From Octopus vulgaris (taxonomy: Eukaryota), in the NCBI GenBank assembly GCA_951406725.2, contig OX597818.1:33232001-33296000 (forward strand): a stretch of 64,000 nt of DNA, given 5' to 3'. A program made the position numbers and the translations under genes. The notes beneath the pieces were generated by a model that worked only from the letters and a program-made list of their open reading frames with translations, ran no database searches and had not been told where the DNA came from. Below are positions 24,465-50,865 of this stretch, piece after piece. Positions within the stretch are counted from its first letter, which is position 1; every line of letters begins with the position of its first letter.

Positions 24465-25110
24465 AAGCACAAGGCCTGACAATTTGGTGGAAGGAGCTAG
24501 TCGGTTCTCATCTGGGACTTATTTCATTGAGCTCGAAGTATAAATGACAAAGTCGACCTCGGCAGAATTTGAACTCAGAACGTAAGGACGGACGAAATGC
24601 CGCTAAGCATTTTGTCCGACACATTAACGATTCTGCCAGCACGCTACCTTAATCAAACTCGAAATAATGTAATTTAATACATATTAAGAATATGTGCACA
24701 GCACAAAATTTACCAAGAAGTATGGAAATGAAAGAAATATTTATTATTTATTATTTTAGCACGACTAAAACGGCGAGCTGGTAGAAACGTTAGCCCGCCG
24801 AGCGGAATGCTTAGCGGCATTTCGTCTGTCTTTACGTTCTGAGTTCAAATTCCGCCGAGGTCGAATTCTGCCTTTCATCCTTTCGAGGTTGATAAATTAA
24901 GTACCAGTTGCGTACTGGGGTCGATCTAATCGACTAGCTCCCTCCCCCAAAATTTCGGGCCTTGAGCCTAGAGTAGATAAGATTATTTTAGCACGACTTT
25001 AGTGTAAGGAACTTTCTACTAGTTGCGTACTGAAGTCGATCTAATCGACTAGCTCTCTCCCCCAAAATTTTGGGCCTTGTGCCTAAAGTAGAACAGATTA
25101 TTTTAGCACG
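24465..25110. mobile_element. Two divergently oriented family A-related SINEs; 3' part tandemly duplicated
   Basis: Minus copy 24465-24650 and plus copy 24770-24985; AGTTGCGTACTG..GATTATTTTAGCACGACTTTAGT repeated at 24906 and 25021. Confidence 0.75.
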
Positions 25111-27478
25111 ACTTTAGTATATGGAACTCACGCTGATTTTTTTCTTTTTTGTATTTATATAAATTTAAAGATGTATTCAGAAACGTAAGTATGAAGTTCA
25201 GAGCGTTTAAAATGATAGAAGATCTCAATGCATAGAATATATTAAAAAGATTATGCGCTTATAGTGGATTCTATACGTGCTGTCAAGAGATTCTATTGCT
25301 AAGCGATAGAAAATTTTACTACTTCGTAAGCAATAACGTGTCTTAGCTAGAATCTGTTTTTAAACCTACTATCTTCACAACACTTTCTTCCGTTGAAAAG
25401 TCTGAACTTGCAACACGAGCATTGTGCTGTGTGGGAGAATTAAATCCATATAAATTATTAGACTCGCAATTCTCATTGTATTTTACGCGTGTAAAGTTGT
25501 ATGTGTGATTAAACTCATTATTTTATCATTACATTACGCTATTGAGTTTACTATATAGATTACATAAAGATATAGTGAATCTATCAAACTTAAAGTTGTA
25601 GGTTCCACCTTTAGAAATTGAATATGAACACTTATAACTGCGAAATCTCCATCACATCACCATTTACCATACAAACTTAAATAAAGGTAAATGGACAAAG
25701 TAGTTTTAAATATATTGTGTATAAAACAAAAGGCTACACTCTTTTCGGTTAAAACCAAGGGCCGTATTAACAATAGTACAGATCTTCAGGAAAAGGAGTC
25801 ACTCCTAAACCATCCTAGCATATCTAATTAAAAATGCGTCCACTGTCAATCAACCATTGTGCCCATGATTTACTCTAGTTTTGCATAAGCCAGTAAATGA
25901 AGTTTGATCCGAAATTGTATCGAAAACAATACTGCGGGCTAAGGTATGGCTTTGCACTAGGCTGGCGCTAGAAACGGCTTAAAGAGTGTAATTTGTATAA
26001 TCATGAAGCCGTGGCTTTGATTCCAAATCCGTAATCGAAGTCCACGGTATTTATTATAAGTTATAACTATATCTTCATTCTTCAGTGTGAAGTTACTCAT
26101 TCTGTGTGATGTGCTACGATGCAGTCTGCCAACGAGACCAAATTGCTTAAAACTATTGACTTTGCCGAAATCTCCCAGTTTCTACACGTAATCATCACGT
26201 TACTGCACCTTTTATATTTAGTTATATTGATAAATACATAAAGAACTCTTAAGATTCGTGTTCCAACACGAACAGACATACGCAAACATGCACTCATACA
26301 TACCTATATATTTAACAACCTTCCTAACTACCAATCTACCAAACTACCAACCTACAGAGACATATAACACATGCATTTGAATGTCTATATACAAACAGAT
26401 TGGCATGTGTAGGATTTGGGGGTTGAGGTTCGTATGACTGCTAATATGTTTGATAGTGTATGCGTGAAAATGTAGTGCTTTACAGATATAGGGACGTAAA
26501 TTACTTTGTGTCTAAAAGTTAATCAAGGATGTGTCTATAATTTCACTTTAGTCCATTGCATATATCCCTGTAAGTGGATTTGTGTTCATCCGAAGAATAA
26601 TTAGTGAGATGGTACATAAATATGAATATGTAAATGTCAGCATTTAAGCGAGTAAATAGCTGTGGTTGTGCGTGTATGTGTTTCTACGTATTCATATACT
26701 TTTGTGTGTGCGTATTAAAGTACTGTCTGTATTTATTGCAAGTTCTCTTCTTCGGAGCTACATTTAATATCTATAGGTCAAATTGAGTTCGAAGTAGATA
26801 TTATCAGGGAAATAAAATGAAACTGAGAACTTAATGCACGCTTGTCAACTTGATACTGTTATATCTAGGATTATAACTAATAATATTCTACCCATGCTGT
26901 AAAAATCTGACAGTTATTTCAACTTCGAATCCTTATAGTTGGTTTCAATTACAGCTTCTTTGGATGCATTTCATTAGAGATGTAAATGATGAACCTTTAC
27001 TGCTTTTCGTTCTCATTTCGATTATTTAATATTTGCTTTCGTTCCATCAAAATGGAATGCTAATATATGCTGCTGTTTTCTTTTTCGTTTCTAAATTAAT
27101 AATACTTAATTCATTACAAAACATTCGAGACAGAATTTTACCTTCCCTCATACATAACTTTCTAATGTCTAGTTTCCTTCTGCGGGATATTTACCTATGA
27201 GTAATCTTGGCGCATTATAGTATTAAATTTCATCCCCGTGTAATCTCGTTACTAGTTAATACCTCTAGAAATTTCCATAAATAAACGATCAGCACCTGAG
27301 TACAATATTTAATACCAGTGAAGTAGTCTATCTACTCTGTACAAGACAACCAGAAAAAGATCATGTCAAATAACGTTGGCATCTGAGATGTTTTTGAAAA
27401 CTAACTGTGAACTTACAACACGAAATGAAAAGCAACAATCTTCCCTAGCATTATGATATATCCATTTTCTTTTACTTG

Positions 27479-33966: not shown

Positions 33967-34017
<51 letters not shown>

Positions 34018-34205
34018 TAGATAGATACATACATACATACATACATACATACGTACATATAAATATATATATATATATATATATTAACAATTAAGGAACG
34101 GCCATAATAGGCCATTCACCCACTAGAAATAACAGCCAAAGCTTCTACCGCAAATAAAGATCAATTCCGTAAACAGGAGAAAATTAAAAAAACATTTACC
34201 CTGTA

Positions 34206-34312
34206 ATTTCTTGTACGGTATACCGTTTCATCTGCTGTTTAATGGTAAACTAACCTGATTAAATTAAATCAAGCCAATCTTCCATAAGCCCTCAGATTCT
34301 TCAGCAAGAAAT
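34206..34312 (-). ncRNA. Type I hammerhead ribozyme, copy 1
   Basis: Minus strand reads AUUUCUUG-CUGAAGA-AUCUG..(extended stem II)..CAGAU-GAAA-CGG-UAUA-CCG-UA-CAAGAAAU. Perfect 8-bp stem I, canonical core, GUA cleavage triplet; predicted cut between 34214 and 34213. Confidence 0.92.
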
Positions 34313-34690
34313 AGCTCAAGTCGGAACAGATATTTACACGAGGCATACCCAATCCTGCCAAGGCAATATTTGACCTAAAATTTTCAAATCGTCGCACTCG
34401 CGCCAAATTTATCGGCAGCAAATAAATCGTCGATTCCATTACGGAATTAACCAAAAAATTCATAATTAATCAATATAGGGTGGCAAGGAAAATTTTGTAG
34501 AATTTTTTTGCCACCAGCGGCCCAGTGGGAAAAAATTAAATAGTCATAGACCATTTTTAAGTTCAACATTAACAATTAAGGAACGGCCATAATAGGCCAT
34601 TCACCCACTAGAAATAACAGCCAAAGCTTCTACCGCAAATAAAGATCAATTCCGTAAACAGGAGAAAATTAAAAAAACATTTACCCTGTA

Positions 34691-34797
34691 ATTTCTTGTA
34701 CGGTATACCGTTTCATCTGCTGTTTAATGGTAAACTAACCTGATTAAATTAAATCAAGCCAATCTTCCATAAGCCCTCAGATTCTTCAGCAAGAAAT
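34691..34797 (-). ncRNA. Type I hammerhead ribozyme, copy 2
   Basis: Same sequence as 34206-34312, offset +485. Confidence 0.92.
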
Positions 34798-35175
34798 AGC
34801 TCAAGTCGGAACAGATATTTACACGAGGCATACCCAATCCTGCCAAGGCAATATTTGACCTAAAATTTTCAAATCGTCGCACTCGCGCCAAATTTATCGG
34901 CAGCAAATAAATCGTCGATTCCATTACGGAATTAACCAAAAAATTCATAATTAATCAATATAGGGTGGCAAGGAAAATTTTGTAGAATTTTTTTGCCACC
35001 AGCGGCCCAGTGGGAAAAAATTAAATAGTCATAGACCATTTTTAAGTTCAACATTAACAATTAAGGAACGGCCATAATAGGCCATTCACCCACTAGAAAT
35101 AACAGCCAAAGCTTCTACCGCAAATAAAGATCAATTCCGTAAACAGGAGAAAATTAAAAAAACATTTACCCTGTA

Positions 35176-35282
35176 ATTTCTTGTACGGTATACCGTTTCA
35201 TCTGCTGTTTAATGGTAAACTAACCTGATTAAATTAAATCAAGCCAATCTTCCATAAGCCCTCAGATTCTTCAGCAAGAAAT
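35176..35282 (-). ncRNA. Type I hammerhead ribozyme, copy 3
   Basis: Same sequence as 34206-34312, offset +970. Confidence 0.92.
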
Positions 35283-35660
35283 AGCTCAAGTCGGAACAGA
35301 TATTTACACGAGGCATACCCAATCCTGCCAAGGCAATATTTGACCTAAAATTTTCAAATCGTCGCACTCGCGCCAAATTTATCGGCAGCAAATAAATCGT
35401 CGATTCCATTACGGAATTAACCAAAAAATTCATAATTAATCAATATAGGGTGGCAAGGAAAATTTTGTAGAATTTTTTTGCCACCAGCGGCCCAGTGGGA
35501 AAAAATTAAATAGTCATAGACCATTTTTAAGTTCAACATTAACAATTAAGGAACGGCCATAATAGGCCATTCACCCACTAGAAATAACAGCCAAAGCTTC
35601 TACCGCAAATAAAGATCAATTCCGTAAACAGGAGAAAATTAAAAAAACATTTACCCTGTA

Positions 35661-35767
35661 ATTTCTTGTACGGTATACCGTTTCATCTGCTGTTTAATGG
35701 TAAACTAACCTGATTAAATTAAATCAAGCCAATCTTCCATAAGCCCTCAGATTCTTCAGCAAGAAAT
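35661..35767 (-). ncRNA. Type I hammerhead ribozyme, copy 4
   Basis: Same sequence as 34206-34312, offset +1455. Confidence 0.92.
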
Positions 35768-36145
35768 AGCTCAAGTCGGAACAGATATTTACACGAGGCA
35801 TACCCAATCCTGCCAAGGCAATATTTGACCTAAAATTTTCAAATCGTCGCACTCGCGCCAAATTTATCGGCAGCAAATAAATCGTCGATTCCATTACGGA
35901 ATTAACCAAAAAATTCATAATTAATCAATATAGGGTGGCAAGGAAAATTTTGTAGAATTTTTTTGCCACCAGCGGCCCAGTGGGAAAAAATTAAATAGTC
36001 ATAGACCATTTTTAAGTTCAACATTAACAATTAAGGAACGGCCATAATAGGCCATTCACCCACTAGAAATAACAGCCAAAGCTTCTACCGCAAATAAAGA
36101 TCAATTCCGTAAACAGGAGAAAATTAAAAAAACATTTACCCTGTA

Positions 36146-36252
36146 ATTTCTTGTACGGTATACCGTTTCATCTGCTGTTTAATGGTAAACTAACCTGATT
36201 AAATTAAATCAAGCCAATCTTCCATAAGCCCTCAGATTCTTCAGCAAGAAAT
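36146..36252 (-). ncRNA. Type I hammerhead ribozyme, copy 5
   Basis: Same sequence as 34206-34312, offset +1940. Confidence 0.92.
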
Positions 36253-36631
36253 AGCTCAAGTCGGAACAGATATTTACACGAGGCATACCCAATCCTGCCA
36301 AGGCAATATTTGACCTAAAATTTTCAAATCGTCGCACTCGCGCCAAATTTATCGGCAGCAAATAAATCGTCGATTCCATTACGGAATTAACCAAAAAATT
36401 CATAATTAATCAATATAGGGTGGCAAGGAAAATTTTGTAGAATTTTTTTGCCACCAGCGGCCCAGTGGGAAAAAATTAAATAGTCATAGACCATTTTTAA
36501 GTTCAACATTAACAATTAAGGAACGGCCATAATAGGCCATTCACCCACTAGAAATAACAGCCAAAGCTTCTACCGCAAATAAAGATCAATTCCGTAAACA
36601 GGAGAAAATTAAAAAAACATTTACCCTGTAA

Positions 36632-36689
<58 letters not shown>

Positions 36690-40111: not shown

Positions 40112-41382
40112 GAGGGAAGTTCAATAAGTAATGCCCCTGACCCACTTGCAATTGTTTGATCTAGCTGAGATTTTGCATGTGCAATCAGTTATATCTCTAT
40201 AGAGTAAGTGGCAAATTACAGCTCTGAATTAATTGTGGTGTCTGATTTACAAGTGTGAAATGGAGCCTGTTGAGTGTCGAGCAGTGATCCGGTTTTTGTA
40301 TTTGAAAGGACGCACACCACGGGAGACTTTTGATGAAATGAAAGTAACTTATGGTGATGATGCCCCATCATATGACCTTGTAAAACGCTGGCATCGTGAA
40401 TTCAAACATGGTCGGAACTCTGTGGAAACAGCTCCCAGATCTGGTCGCCCCTTCTGCCATTGATGAGGCATCTGTCCCTCAAGTTGAGGCTGCCATTTTG
40501 GAAGATCGACGCATAATTATTCGCCAAATAGCCCATGAGGTCAAGATTAGTACCGGGTCTGTGGAAACTATCATTCATGACCATTTGCATATGCAAAAGG
40601 TGTCTGCCAGATGGATTCCCAGGTTGCTCACGCCTTTCCAGAAGCAAGAACGCGTCGAGTGCTCGAGGGTGAATTTGGAGATGTGCCAAGAAGATGAGTC
40701 AAGATTTTTCAAAAGACTGATTACACAGGATGAAACCTGGGTTCATCACGATGATCCAGAGACCAAAGCCCAGTCAATGCAGTGGAAGCACCGTGACTCA
40801 CCCCCTCCAAAGAAGGCAAGGGTGCAGCCCTCCGCTGGCAAGGTCATGCTCACAGTCTTCTGGGACCAGGACGGAGTAGTGATGACAGATTTCCTGGCAA
40901 AGGGTACCACAATTGCAGGAGCCTATTATGCTTCACTTTTGAGGAAATTAAGAGAAGTTATCAAAATCAAGAGGCGGGGCAAGATCAGCAAAGGCATCCT
41001 CCTCCTGCAGGACAACGCTCCGGTCCACAACTCGCTTGTCGCCAGATCAGAAGCACAGTCGTATGGCTATGAACTCCTCCCCATCCCCCCTACTTTCCTG
41101 ACCTTGCACCCTCTGATTTTCACCTCTTCCCAATCATGAAGTTGTTTTTGAAAGGAAAGCGTTTCCCAGATGATGCAGCCTTGATTTCTGAAGTCACGTT
41201 GAGGCTGAAGGACCAAGCTGGGTTCTTCTACAAAAACGGTCTCCAGATCCGCATCAAGCGATGGGAGAAATGCGTAACTCTGGGTGGTTCCTATGTAGAA
41301 AATGACTAATAACTGTGCCAAGTTTCGTTGCTCTACTGCTATGGGAAGTGGGTCAGGAGCATTACTTATTGAACGCCCCTCG
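40111..41382 (+). mobile_element. Full-length mariner (Tc1/mariner DD34D) transposon, probably irritans-like subfamily
   Basis: 37-bp TIRs CGAGGG(AA/GC)GTTCAATAAGTAATGC(C/T)CCTGACCCACTT with 3 mismatches; TA on both sides (40109-40110, 41383-41384); 1272 bp long. Confidence 0.95.
40260..41309 (+). pseudogene. Mariner transposase with two frameshifts
   Basis: MEPVECRAVIRFL..RSGRP / ..WIPRLL..ITQDETW..QDNAPVH.. / HPPYFPDLAPSDFHLF..RWEKCVTLGGSYVEND*. 34 residues between the second and third catalytic Asp after correction. Frameshifts at ~40450 and ~41081, both in C runs. Confidence 0.93.
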
Positions 41383-44637: not shown

Positions 44638-45234
44638 ATATTTCTTTACTACCCACAAGGGGCTAAACATAGAGGGGACAAACATAGACAGACACGGATT
44701 AAGTCGATTACATCGACCCCAGTGCATAGCTGATACTTAATTTATCGACCCCGAAAGGATGAAAAGCAAAGTCGACCTCGACGAAATTTGAACACAGAAT
44801 GTAACAGCAGACGAAATACGGCTACGTATTTCTTTAGGGCCTAAACACAGAGGGGACGAACAAAGACAGACAAATGGATTAAGTCGATTATATCGACCCC
44901 AGTGAGTAACTGGTACTTATTTAATCGACCCCGAATGGATTAAAGGCAAAGTCGACCTCGGCGGAATTTTAACTCAGAACGTAGCGGCAGACGAAATACC
45001 AATTTCTTTACTACCCACAAGGGGCTAAACACAGAGGGGACAAACAAGGACAGAGAAACGGATTAAGTCGATTATATCGACCCCAGTGCGTAACTGGTAC
45101 TTATTTAATCGACCCCCGAATGGATGAAAGGTAAAGTTGACCTCGGTGGAATTTGAACTCAGAACGTAGCGGCAGACTAAATACTACAAAGCATTTCTCC
45201 CGGCGCGCTAACGTTTCTGCCAGCTCGCCGTCTT
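44638..45234 (-). mobile_element. SINE family A, trimeric copy
   Basis: Three tandem bodies and one head at ~45190-45232. Confidence 0.85.
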
Positions 45235-47694: not shown

Positions 47695-48301
47695 AAGGCG
47701 GTGAGCTGGCAGAAACGTTAGCACGCCGGGCGAAATGCTTAGCGGTATTTCGTCTGCCGTTTCGTTCTGAGTTCAAATTCCGCCGAGATCGACTTTGCCT
47801 TTCACCCTTTCGGGGTCGATTAAATAAGTACCAGTTACGCACTGGGGTCGATATAATCGACTTAATCCGTTTGTCTGTCCTTGTTAATCCTCTCTGTGTT
47901 TAGCCCCCTTGTGGGTAGTAAAGAAATATGTATTTCGTCTGCCGTTAACGTTCTGAGTTCAAATTCCGCCGAGGTCGACTTTGCCATTCATCCTTTCGGG
48001 GTCGATAAATTAAGTACCAGCTACGCACTGGGGTCTATATAATCGACTTAATCCGTTTGTCTGTCCTTGTTAATCCTCTTTGTGTTTAGCCCCTTGTGGT
48101 TATTAAAGAAATAGGTATTTCGCCTGCCGCTACGTTCTGAGTTCAAATTCCGCCGAGGTCGACTTTGCCTTTCATCCTTTCGGGGTCGATTAAATAAGTA
48201 CCAGTTAATCACTGAGGTCTATGTAATCGACTTAATCCCTTTATCTGTCCTTGTTTGTCCCCTCTATGTTTAGCCCCTTGTGGGCAATACAGAAATTAAT
48301 A
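47695..48301 (+). mobile_element. SINE family A, trimeric copy with TSD
   Basis: One head GGCGGTGAGCTGGCAGAAACGTTAGC, then three ~185-bp bodies (GAGTTCAAATTCCGCCGAGGTCGACTTTGCCTTTCATCC...). 21-bp TSD AGTAATATA(G/T)TATAGGATTTT at 47674-47694 and 48302-48322. Confidence 0.85.
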
Positions 48302-50254: not shown

Positions 50255-50865
50255 TTTGGTACAAGGCCATCAGGTTTTGAGGAGCGAGAAAGTCGATTCC
50301 ATCGATCCCAGTACTTGACTGGTACTTATTTCCTGAACACCCAAAGGATGAAAGACAAAGTTGACCGCGGCTGACTGGATTTGAACTCAGAATGTGAAGA
50401 CGAAGGAAATTACCCCAGACATTCCGCCGGCGTGCTAAAGATTCTTATTTCTTTATTGCCCACTAGGGACTAAACACAGAGGGGACAAACAAGGACAGAC
50501 ATACAGATTAAGTCGATTACATCGACTCCAGTATGTAACTGGTACTTAATTTATCGATCCCGAAAGGATGAAAGGCAAAGTCGACCTCAGTAGAATTTGA
50601 ACTCAGAACGTAACGACAGAAGAAATACCTATTTCTATTTCTTTACTACTCACAAGGGGTTAAACACACAGAGAGGACAAACAAGGACAGACAAACGTGT
50701 TAAGTCGATTATATCGACCCCAGTAACTTGTACTTATTTAATCGACCCCGAAAGGATGAAAGGCAAAGTCGACATCGGCGGAATTTGAACTCAGAACGTA
50801 ACGACAGAAGAAGTACCGTTGAGCATTCCGTCACCGTGCTAAAGATTCTGCCCGCTCGCTGCCTT
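50255..50865 (-). mobile_element. SINE family A cluster (dimer plus a decayed copy)
   Basis: Repeated GAAAGGATGAAAGGCAAAGTCGAC..GAATTTGAACTCAGAACG. Confidence 0.8.

Follow-up and report, generated by a model that had tools for sequence, protein, structure and literature searches.

Tandem retrozymes of Octopus vulgaris whose insertions show the anatomy of Penelope-like elements

Background

The non-LTR retrozymes of animals, as described from coral, mussel and axolotl, are non-coding, low-GC tandem repeats with units of 170-400 nt, each with one type I hammerhead ribozyme; a palindromic stem III loop, dispersal and coexistence with Penelope-like elements (PLEs) are further traits given in the available text of PMC7229834. 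In vertebrates, units range from 51 to 972 bp, and a link to PLEs has been drawn from co-occurrence and pLTR similarity, local amplification being suggested; no mollusc figures among the species sampled in the available text of that study (10.64898/2026.07.22.740005).

PLE copies themselves lie as partial tandems with an inverted copy and often a tail at one end, and Hydra-1_Obim is listed for Octopus (available text of PMC8557442). In vitro, the tail of the anole Poseidon PLE lies between two internal start sites of reverse transcription, and both DNA strands are cut and extended; according to the available text, cleavage was dispensable and no reads ended at the cut, a point against the mechanism proposed below (PMC11167929). 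To judge from what is available of these four sources (PMC7229834, PMC8557442, PMC11167929, 10.64898/2026.07.22.740005), the movement of animal retrozymes, the role of the PLE hammerhead in vivo, and the origin of PLE tails and inverted arms are open questions.

A literature search on octopus retrozymes and hammerheads, with most subscription papers and repeat databases outside its scope, returned no account of the family reported below; within the same limits, a search on the insertion mechanism of retrozymes returned no two-start, inverted anatomy in a retrozyme. The octopus repeat annotation PMC13282606 names neither ribozymes nor retrozymes in its main text, and neither retrozymes nor hammerheads in its supplement. 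The family may already stand unnamed in repeat databases or supplements. Here, I describe its insertion anatomy, which is genomic evidence for a PLE route of retrozyme mobilisation that has so far mostly been inferred.

Results and discussion

The array and its surroundings

The window is a stretch of 64,000 nucleotides of the O. vulgaris genome (assembly GCA_951406725.2, contig OX597818.1, positions 33,232,001 to 33,296,000 of the forward strand); all positions given here count from its first letter. In the assembled sequence, TRF finds an array (34083-36631) with a period of 485, 5.3 copies and 100% matches. Units 1-5 differ at 0 positions and are followed by a sixth, partial unit of 124 nt, the array being 485 bp x 5.26 long and having (TA)n on both flanks (Table 1). 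Its longest stop-free frames are 66 aa on the minus and 41 aa on the plus strand, and no ORF with RT and GIY-YIG, as an autonomous PLE would have, is found in it. The monomer is well structured in folding predictions (z -5.9). The flank of the array has no cover in any public run, DNA runs included, and is uninformative on an empty site or on read-through; an empty site did not come to light elsewhere.

A preliminary description of the locus, made from the letters alone, had seen five identical units, no credible ORF and a very recent insertion of a non-LTR retrozyme. The first two claims hold as worded; the retrozyme identity is borne out by covariation and by dispersed near-identical copies (see below), which also support the recent date. 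That the unit is unusually long is true against the 170-400 nt of PMC7229834, the 68-nt stem II of the ribozyme being a further difference, but not against the 51-972 bp of vertebrate units (10.64898/2026.07.22.740005), each range as given in the available text. The evidence supports the array being one very recent insertion of a dispersed, non-autonomous non-LTR retrozyme family. In its tandem units, the complete type I hammerhead of each full unit, its lack of coding capacity and its dispersed copies, the family agrees with non-LTR retrozymes, a known class, and is thus not categorically new.

Elsewhere in the window, a 251-aa stop-free frame (40384-41139) resembles part of a mariner/Tc1 transposase, and short tandem arrays of 115-188-bp SINE-like units (44640-45184, 47744-48296, 50446-50817 and 24902-25128) resemble octopus SINEs.

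Table 1 Features of the retrozyme insertion, in positions of the window
Feature	Position	Strand	Remark
Whole insertion, 5 x 485-bp units + 124 bp, single-armed copy	34083..36631	-	RNA sense is the minus strand
Start site A, unit position ~1, joined to (TA)n	34083..34090	+	cDNA start of the window insertion
Start site B (unit ~380-385) and ~106-nt PLE-type tail between B and A	34462..34567	+	
Partial sixth unit, pLTR-like terminal repeat	36508..36631	-	Without ribozyme
Type I hammerhead, unit 1	34206..34312	-	Predicted cut 34214|34213; fold and covariation
Hammerhead, unit 2	34691..34797	-	Identical to unit 1
Hammerhead, unit 3	35176..35282	-	Identical to unit 1
Hammerhead, unit 4	35661..35767	-	Identical to unit 1
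Hammerhead, unit 5	36146..36252	-	Identical to unit 1
Array-private allele, unit 288, T (C elsewhere)	34370	+	Recurs at 34855, 35340, 35825, 36310
Left (TA)n-rich microsatellite target	33971..34082	n/a	
Right (TA)n microsatellite target	36632..36686	n/a	

A hammerhead with a long stem II

Core and three stems of a minus-strand type I hammerhead are complete in 5/5 full units, as the preliminary description had it. In unit 1, an 8-bp stem I (34312-34305 paired with 34213-34206), the core strands CUGAAGA (34304-34298) and GAAA (34229-34226), a palindromic 4-bp stem III and the GUA triplet agree with the coordinates proposed there, as does the predicted cut between 34214 and 34213. Two of its statements need narrowing: the ribozyme is present in the five full units but not in the partial sixth, and the epithet canonical suits core and stems but not size, stem II being an extended hairpin of 68 nt. 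No CUGAnGA core lies on the plus strand of the array. The long hairpin is probably also the reason why the Rfam scan suggested in the preliminary description came back empty, with no hammerhead at the gathering threshold in the window, nor at E<=10 in 34083-35100. The family reveals a hammerhead type overlooked by Rfam scans. A plant-type LTR retrozyme, with type III hammerheads in its LTRs, was considered and rejected: stem I is the open stem here, and the repeat is a tandem with no LTR.

For the isolated 119-nt domain, the MFE structure is the hammerhead (z -5.0; 0/200 shuffles). Across 18 distinct genomic variants, 99.4% of the cells are paired, a count that 0/500 shuffles reach, and slid controls bring the paired cells down to 28-43%. 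Both partners have changed in five pairs: stem II has three of them, stem I one, and the fifth, scored as intermolecular, belongs to the palindromic loop of stem III. This pair count is reached by 27/500 shuffles; kinship among variants inflates tests of such kind. Core variation is confined to position 7 (A, U, G or C), position 17 (A or C only) and one more single change; positions 7 and 17 are known to tolerate change. The covariation supports the predicted hammerhead fold, conservation of which is a direct observation across the variants, and the ribozyme of the family appears to be under selection.

In folding models of the full-length context, stem I is mostly unformed (predicted P ~0.03), although no more than 1.6 kcal/mol separate a competent circle fold from the minimum. 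As stem I would thus rarely form, cleavage may be partial or may need assistance.

Dispersal and insertion anatomy

The genome-wide search for dispersed arrays, likewise suggested in the preliminary description, was rewarded with at least 253 matches to the 485-bp unit on many contigs, and 226 exact matches to the youngest ribozyme core. Insertions were mapped at 92 loci, 96 in number; 70 consist of two inverted arms, and the other 26 were scored as single-armed, with a short, unmapped inverted stub in a few of them. One insertion occurs twice together with its flanks (L060 and L061, contig C30, in a region rich in copies of an old PLE), L061 being left out of the map as a duplicate of L060.

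Every arm, read as cDNA, begins at a TA tract and typically at one of two places in the unit, ~1 (site A) or ~380 (site B). Among the two-armed insertions, 65/70 combine one A with one B, none has A+A or B+B, and 5/70 have one odd end; TA-rich flanks are found on both sides in 66/70. The one-A-one-B rule, again a direct observation, also holds in subsets picked by one end only, namely in 17/18 loci picked by A and 16/16 picked by B. Arms contain 0-14 full units. On the RNA, site A sits 131 nt downstream of the cut; site B, where the second arm of two-armed copies starts, is 106 nt away from A, this distance being the PLE tail. In the window copy, the cDNA starts at A and, after 5.26 rounds, stops at a TA microhomology 7 nt before reaching the ribozyme cut.

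The junctions allow the family to be counted: exact TA-to-site-A junctions of the youngest type number 47, and the TA-to-site-B pattern is matched 607 times in reverse and, with overlaps, 1,445 times in forward orientation, which corresponds to roughly 1,200 ends. All loci sampled from the latter pattern (20/20) belong to the family of the window, their pieces being 72-97% identical to the window unit. Half or more of the sampled unit words occur in 19 public runs, and the family is present in public runs under three organism labels.

This anatomy is that of Hydra-clade and Poseidon PLEs, which share with the octopus insertions partial tandems, an inverted arm, a tail at one end, two internal starts, a (TA)n target and a hammerhead upstream of the start sites (PMC8557442 and PMC11167929, in their available text). 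Unlike PLEs, the retrozyme has no ORF and its arms hold up to 14 full units; its tail is ~106 nt as against the 30-40 bp usual for PLEs in the literature at hand, autonomous PLEs of the same genome having ~152 and ~67 nt. The likeness to animal retrozymes extends to all the traits listed above for PMC7229834 other than unit length, the available text of which describes neither (TA)n targeting nor two inverted arms nor two fixed starts; cleavage and circles, predicted for the octopus family, have been demonstrated for the retrozymes of that study. Like the vertebrate retrozymes, it has a unit within the range of 51-972 bp and a PLE link (10.64898/2026.07.22.740005, available text). No pLTR homology to the PLEs compared was found here, in contrast to the vertebrate families, and the insertion signature that is present favours multimers being made at insertion.

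It is well supported that the two-start, inverted, (TA)n anatomy is the PLE tail signature and that a PLE pastes the family into TA repeats: two-armed A+B copies, (TA)n targets and PLEs of the same genome with the same anatomy all point to PLE mobilisation, which the preliminary description had proposed. The family moves in the manner of a PLE insertion, yet it is neither an autonomous PLE nor a demonstrated pLTR derivative.

A proposed mechanism and its template

Taken together, the insertions are quite probably the work of a non-autonomous retrozyme whose ribozyme-cut monomers are copied repeatedly from A and B by a Hydra-type PLE acting in trans. Minus-strand RNA would be cut by the hammerhead into 485-nt monomers, and these may be ligated into circles, as in other retrozymes. 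The (TA)n DNA would then be cut by a Penelope-like RT/GIY-YIG protein, most likely of Hydra type, and each broken end would prime reverse transcription inside the RNA, one presumably at site A and its counterpart 106 nt further 3', at site B. The enzyme could copy the monomer repeatedly, either by circling a closed RNA or by switching back to the 3' end on reaching the 5' end, and leave 0-14 full units per arm; the two cDNAs would join at their 3' ends into two inverted arms, while a lone surviving arm would join the TA target, as in the window.

Haplotypes bear on the template. In 12/15 divergent loci, no arm of another locus is as close to a given arm as its partner, a sharing seen directly in the copies; a case in point concerns L074, whose arms differ at 0/399 positions, against a median of 27 to other arms. 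Of the differences that set loci with at least 3 full units apart from their nearest locus, 21 are found in every unit and 5 in only some. Alleles fixed across units and both inverted arms occur in L056 (89C in 8 pieces), L050 and L082, variants in only some units in L065, L082 and L074. The allele 288T has 5 matches genome-wide, all within the window array. In the mapped arrays, no unit-specific variant is repeated in matching units of both arms. Haplotype sharing and the window-only allele would fit with repeated copying of one monomer, although unsampled source arrays or later homogenisation may be an alternative source of fixed alleles.

A second line of evidence comes from where arms stop. 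Unit positions 95-132, just before the cut, hold 36/138 arm ends against an expected share of 0.086, a direct 3.0-fold enrichment, and 20/81 ends of arms longer than 300 nt (3.5-fold); the excess is reached by 0/5000 scan simulations, and none is seen at 133-170. Single arm ends fall at 129, 130, 131 and 132. Excluded from this test were 9 loci that were complex or contained N, 2 lone pieces, 7 arms with their end at 481-485 and all arms starting at neither A nor B. The same interval contains A-rich sequence and TA microhomology; A-rich parts of the unit elsewhere show no comparable excess, and microhomology may contribute to it. From this enrichment, some templates seem to be 5'-ended at the cut, while most passes read through.

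More tentatively, a single circular 485-nt RNA might serve both broken DNA ends, a PLE dimer priming at two sites and rolling round until cleavage ends the arm. If so, a single reaction in which the hammerhead sets the insert length would yield retrozyme tandems, inverted arms and PLE tail alike. The copies would then directly record, for the first time in the genome of an animal, rolling-circle target-primed reverse transcription, and this in a genome that has at least four families of the kind. The sequence of a circle junction equals the tandem junction of the 485-nt unit.

A rather unlikely alternative is that the PLE copies a linear, multimeric read-through transcript of homogeneous arrays, partly cleaved, with neither circle nor recopying of monomers. 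The arm-end excess just before the cut does need linear 5' ends, the near-identical units within arrays would make such a multimer look alike, and uncleaved RNA was the main in vitro substrate of the anole PLE (PMC11167929, available text). This reading would, however, require a one-monomer bottleneck, or source arrays absent from the assembly, for the alleles fixed over units and both arms as well as for 288T, and it is at odds with the lack of any unit-specific variant recurring in matching units of the two arms.

Candidate helpers in the same genome

For the preferred mechanism, a helper in trans, candidates are at hand. The genome has several young PLE families with intact frames, near-identical Hydra-type copies being abundant; frames of 717, 727, 778, 838, 842, 899, ~980 and ~1,090 aa were noted (among other places at L110-L127 and L162-L185), and some young Hydra-type PLEs have a CCGAAGA variant of the hammerhead core and tails of ~67 to ~152 nt. 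Two families were compared with the retrozyme, at loci chosen partly for visible inverted pairs. PLE-A (unit 3,624 bp, frame 899 aa) is two-armed at 15/17 loci, of which 13 have clean starts at ~736 and ~888, with the same start used twice in 0; PLE-C (2,590 bp, 717 aa) has one of each start at 9/12 loci, 3 being ambiguous. Both are inserted in (TA)n and have their hammerheads upstream of the start sites, and four PLE-A arms end within 11 nt of the PLE-A cut.

The structure model of the PLE-C protein (pLDDT 90.7) has telomerase RT (TERT-like) as its top fold match. The motifs RWK, DKT, CxCx5C (in the linker), CxxC and CxH are the Hydra-defining set and all occur in PLE-C, which further has a C-terminal GIY-YIG, a hammerhead (with the CCGAAGA core variant), (TA)n targets and a length below 3 kb. 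Pfam gave no family for PLE-A or PLE-C and PDB sequence searches with the PLE proteins nothing significant, so that the helper assignment is based on motifs and fold.

A sequence link between retrozyme and helper was sought without success in the families compared. The best BLAST E values of the unit against PLE DNA are 3.0 (PLE-A) and 0.62 (PLE-C), with local alignments at shuffle level, other PLE families (frames of about 718-1,090 aa) lying outside this search; pLTR similarity of the unit is absent in PLE-A, PLE-C and the PLEs of 12 further loci. No PLE arm forms part of any mapped insertion, PLE matches being separate neighbours. A short motif common to the tails of PLE-A/B and older retrozyme variants, and absent from the window subfamily and PLE-C, is a lead only.

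This missing link, together with the preference of octopus Naiads for (TA)n (PMC8557442, available text), could be taken to mean that a Naiad or another TA-targeting retroelement is the helper instead. I regard this as improbable: cephalopod Naiads are long-inactive remnants without canonical hammerheads, as far as the available text of the same survey goes, whereas intact, near-identical Hydra-type copies abound in this genome, and the two-start inverted pattern has been described for PLEs (PMC8557442, PMC11167929, available text). Judged by anatomy and motifs, the helper is likely a Hydra-type PLE.

About a thousand young insertions whose ends can be mapped, a compact substrate of 485 nt and intact candidate helpers are found together in one genome, which makes retrozyme and PLE questions testable in a defined in vitro system.

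Local amplification and artefact

The satellite-birth model suggested for vertebrates (10.64898/2026.07.22.740005, available text), in which unequal crossover or slippage multiplies a monomer on the spot after its insertion, would account for the five identical units and the private allele of the window locus. The insertion record is unusually direct evidence on retrozyme mobilisation and speaks against purely local amplification, which leaves unexplained the multi-unit arrays on both inverted arms, the fixed starts, the shared private alleles and the concentration of arm ends at the cut; as a general account it is very improbable, even if the mosaic variants of L065 suggest some exchange within arrays. 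In one arm of this 16-unit locus, two variants form a mosaic over the units, which hints at haplotype mixing or at exchange inside the array.

That the array arose as an artefact of assembly, or is an inert satellite whose ribozyme-like motif is due to chance, as its 100% identical units and the lack of an Rfam match might suggest, is hardly credible given its private allele, the covarying motif, the at least 253 matches on many contigs and the presence of the family in 19 independent public runs.

RNA-like evidence

Three runs guessed to be RNA (contigs only, without matched DNA) cover the whole unit. T>C changes (A>G as read on the ribozyme strand) are in excess in two of them, X1 having 11 such places and X9 having 7, with a single A>G in either run; many of the X1 sites stem from a single contig. 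Five T>C sites of X1/X9 have no C in 62 genomic loci, and at all examined T>C sites (12/12), the 5' neighbour on the minus strand is U or A (background 0.69, p 0.012). This suggests A-to-I editing of ribozyme-strand RNA.

Two further ideas were dropped. Editing as a source of new genomic alleles would call for a clear T>C excess, which is not seen (T>C 29, C>T 22, A>G 21), the private alleles being mixed; for transcription by Pol III, no B-box-like motif was found, and the RNA strand has 6 U-runs.

Other hammerhead-bearing and TA-associated repeats

Besides the family of the window, a second hammerhead-bearing tandem family lies in TA at L139:1568-3020, with near-identical copies of a 536-bp unit. 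It ends at a site matching A, and its distant homology to the family of the window, with a score of 55 vs a shuffle maximum of 39, spans both start sites. A third tandem family (L054:1-1162, 479-bp unit) has a compact hammerhead with a 12-nt stem II and ends in TA. A fourth, older TA-inserted family (L181:5139-5760, L116:1315-1560, L031 and L174) has a weak similarity near site A (2/200 shuffles as good) and 3,169 first-look candidates; at L181, its copy abuts an inverted PLE-C-like terminal piece, possibly a chimeric insertion or a nested copy.

Solitary hammerhead-like motifs with a long stem II were noted at L159:1445, L142 and L183. A 16-nt motif recurs in 21/92 loci (e.g. L046, L056 and L154), often directly beside TA tracts, and is probably the end of another TA-associated repeat.
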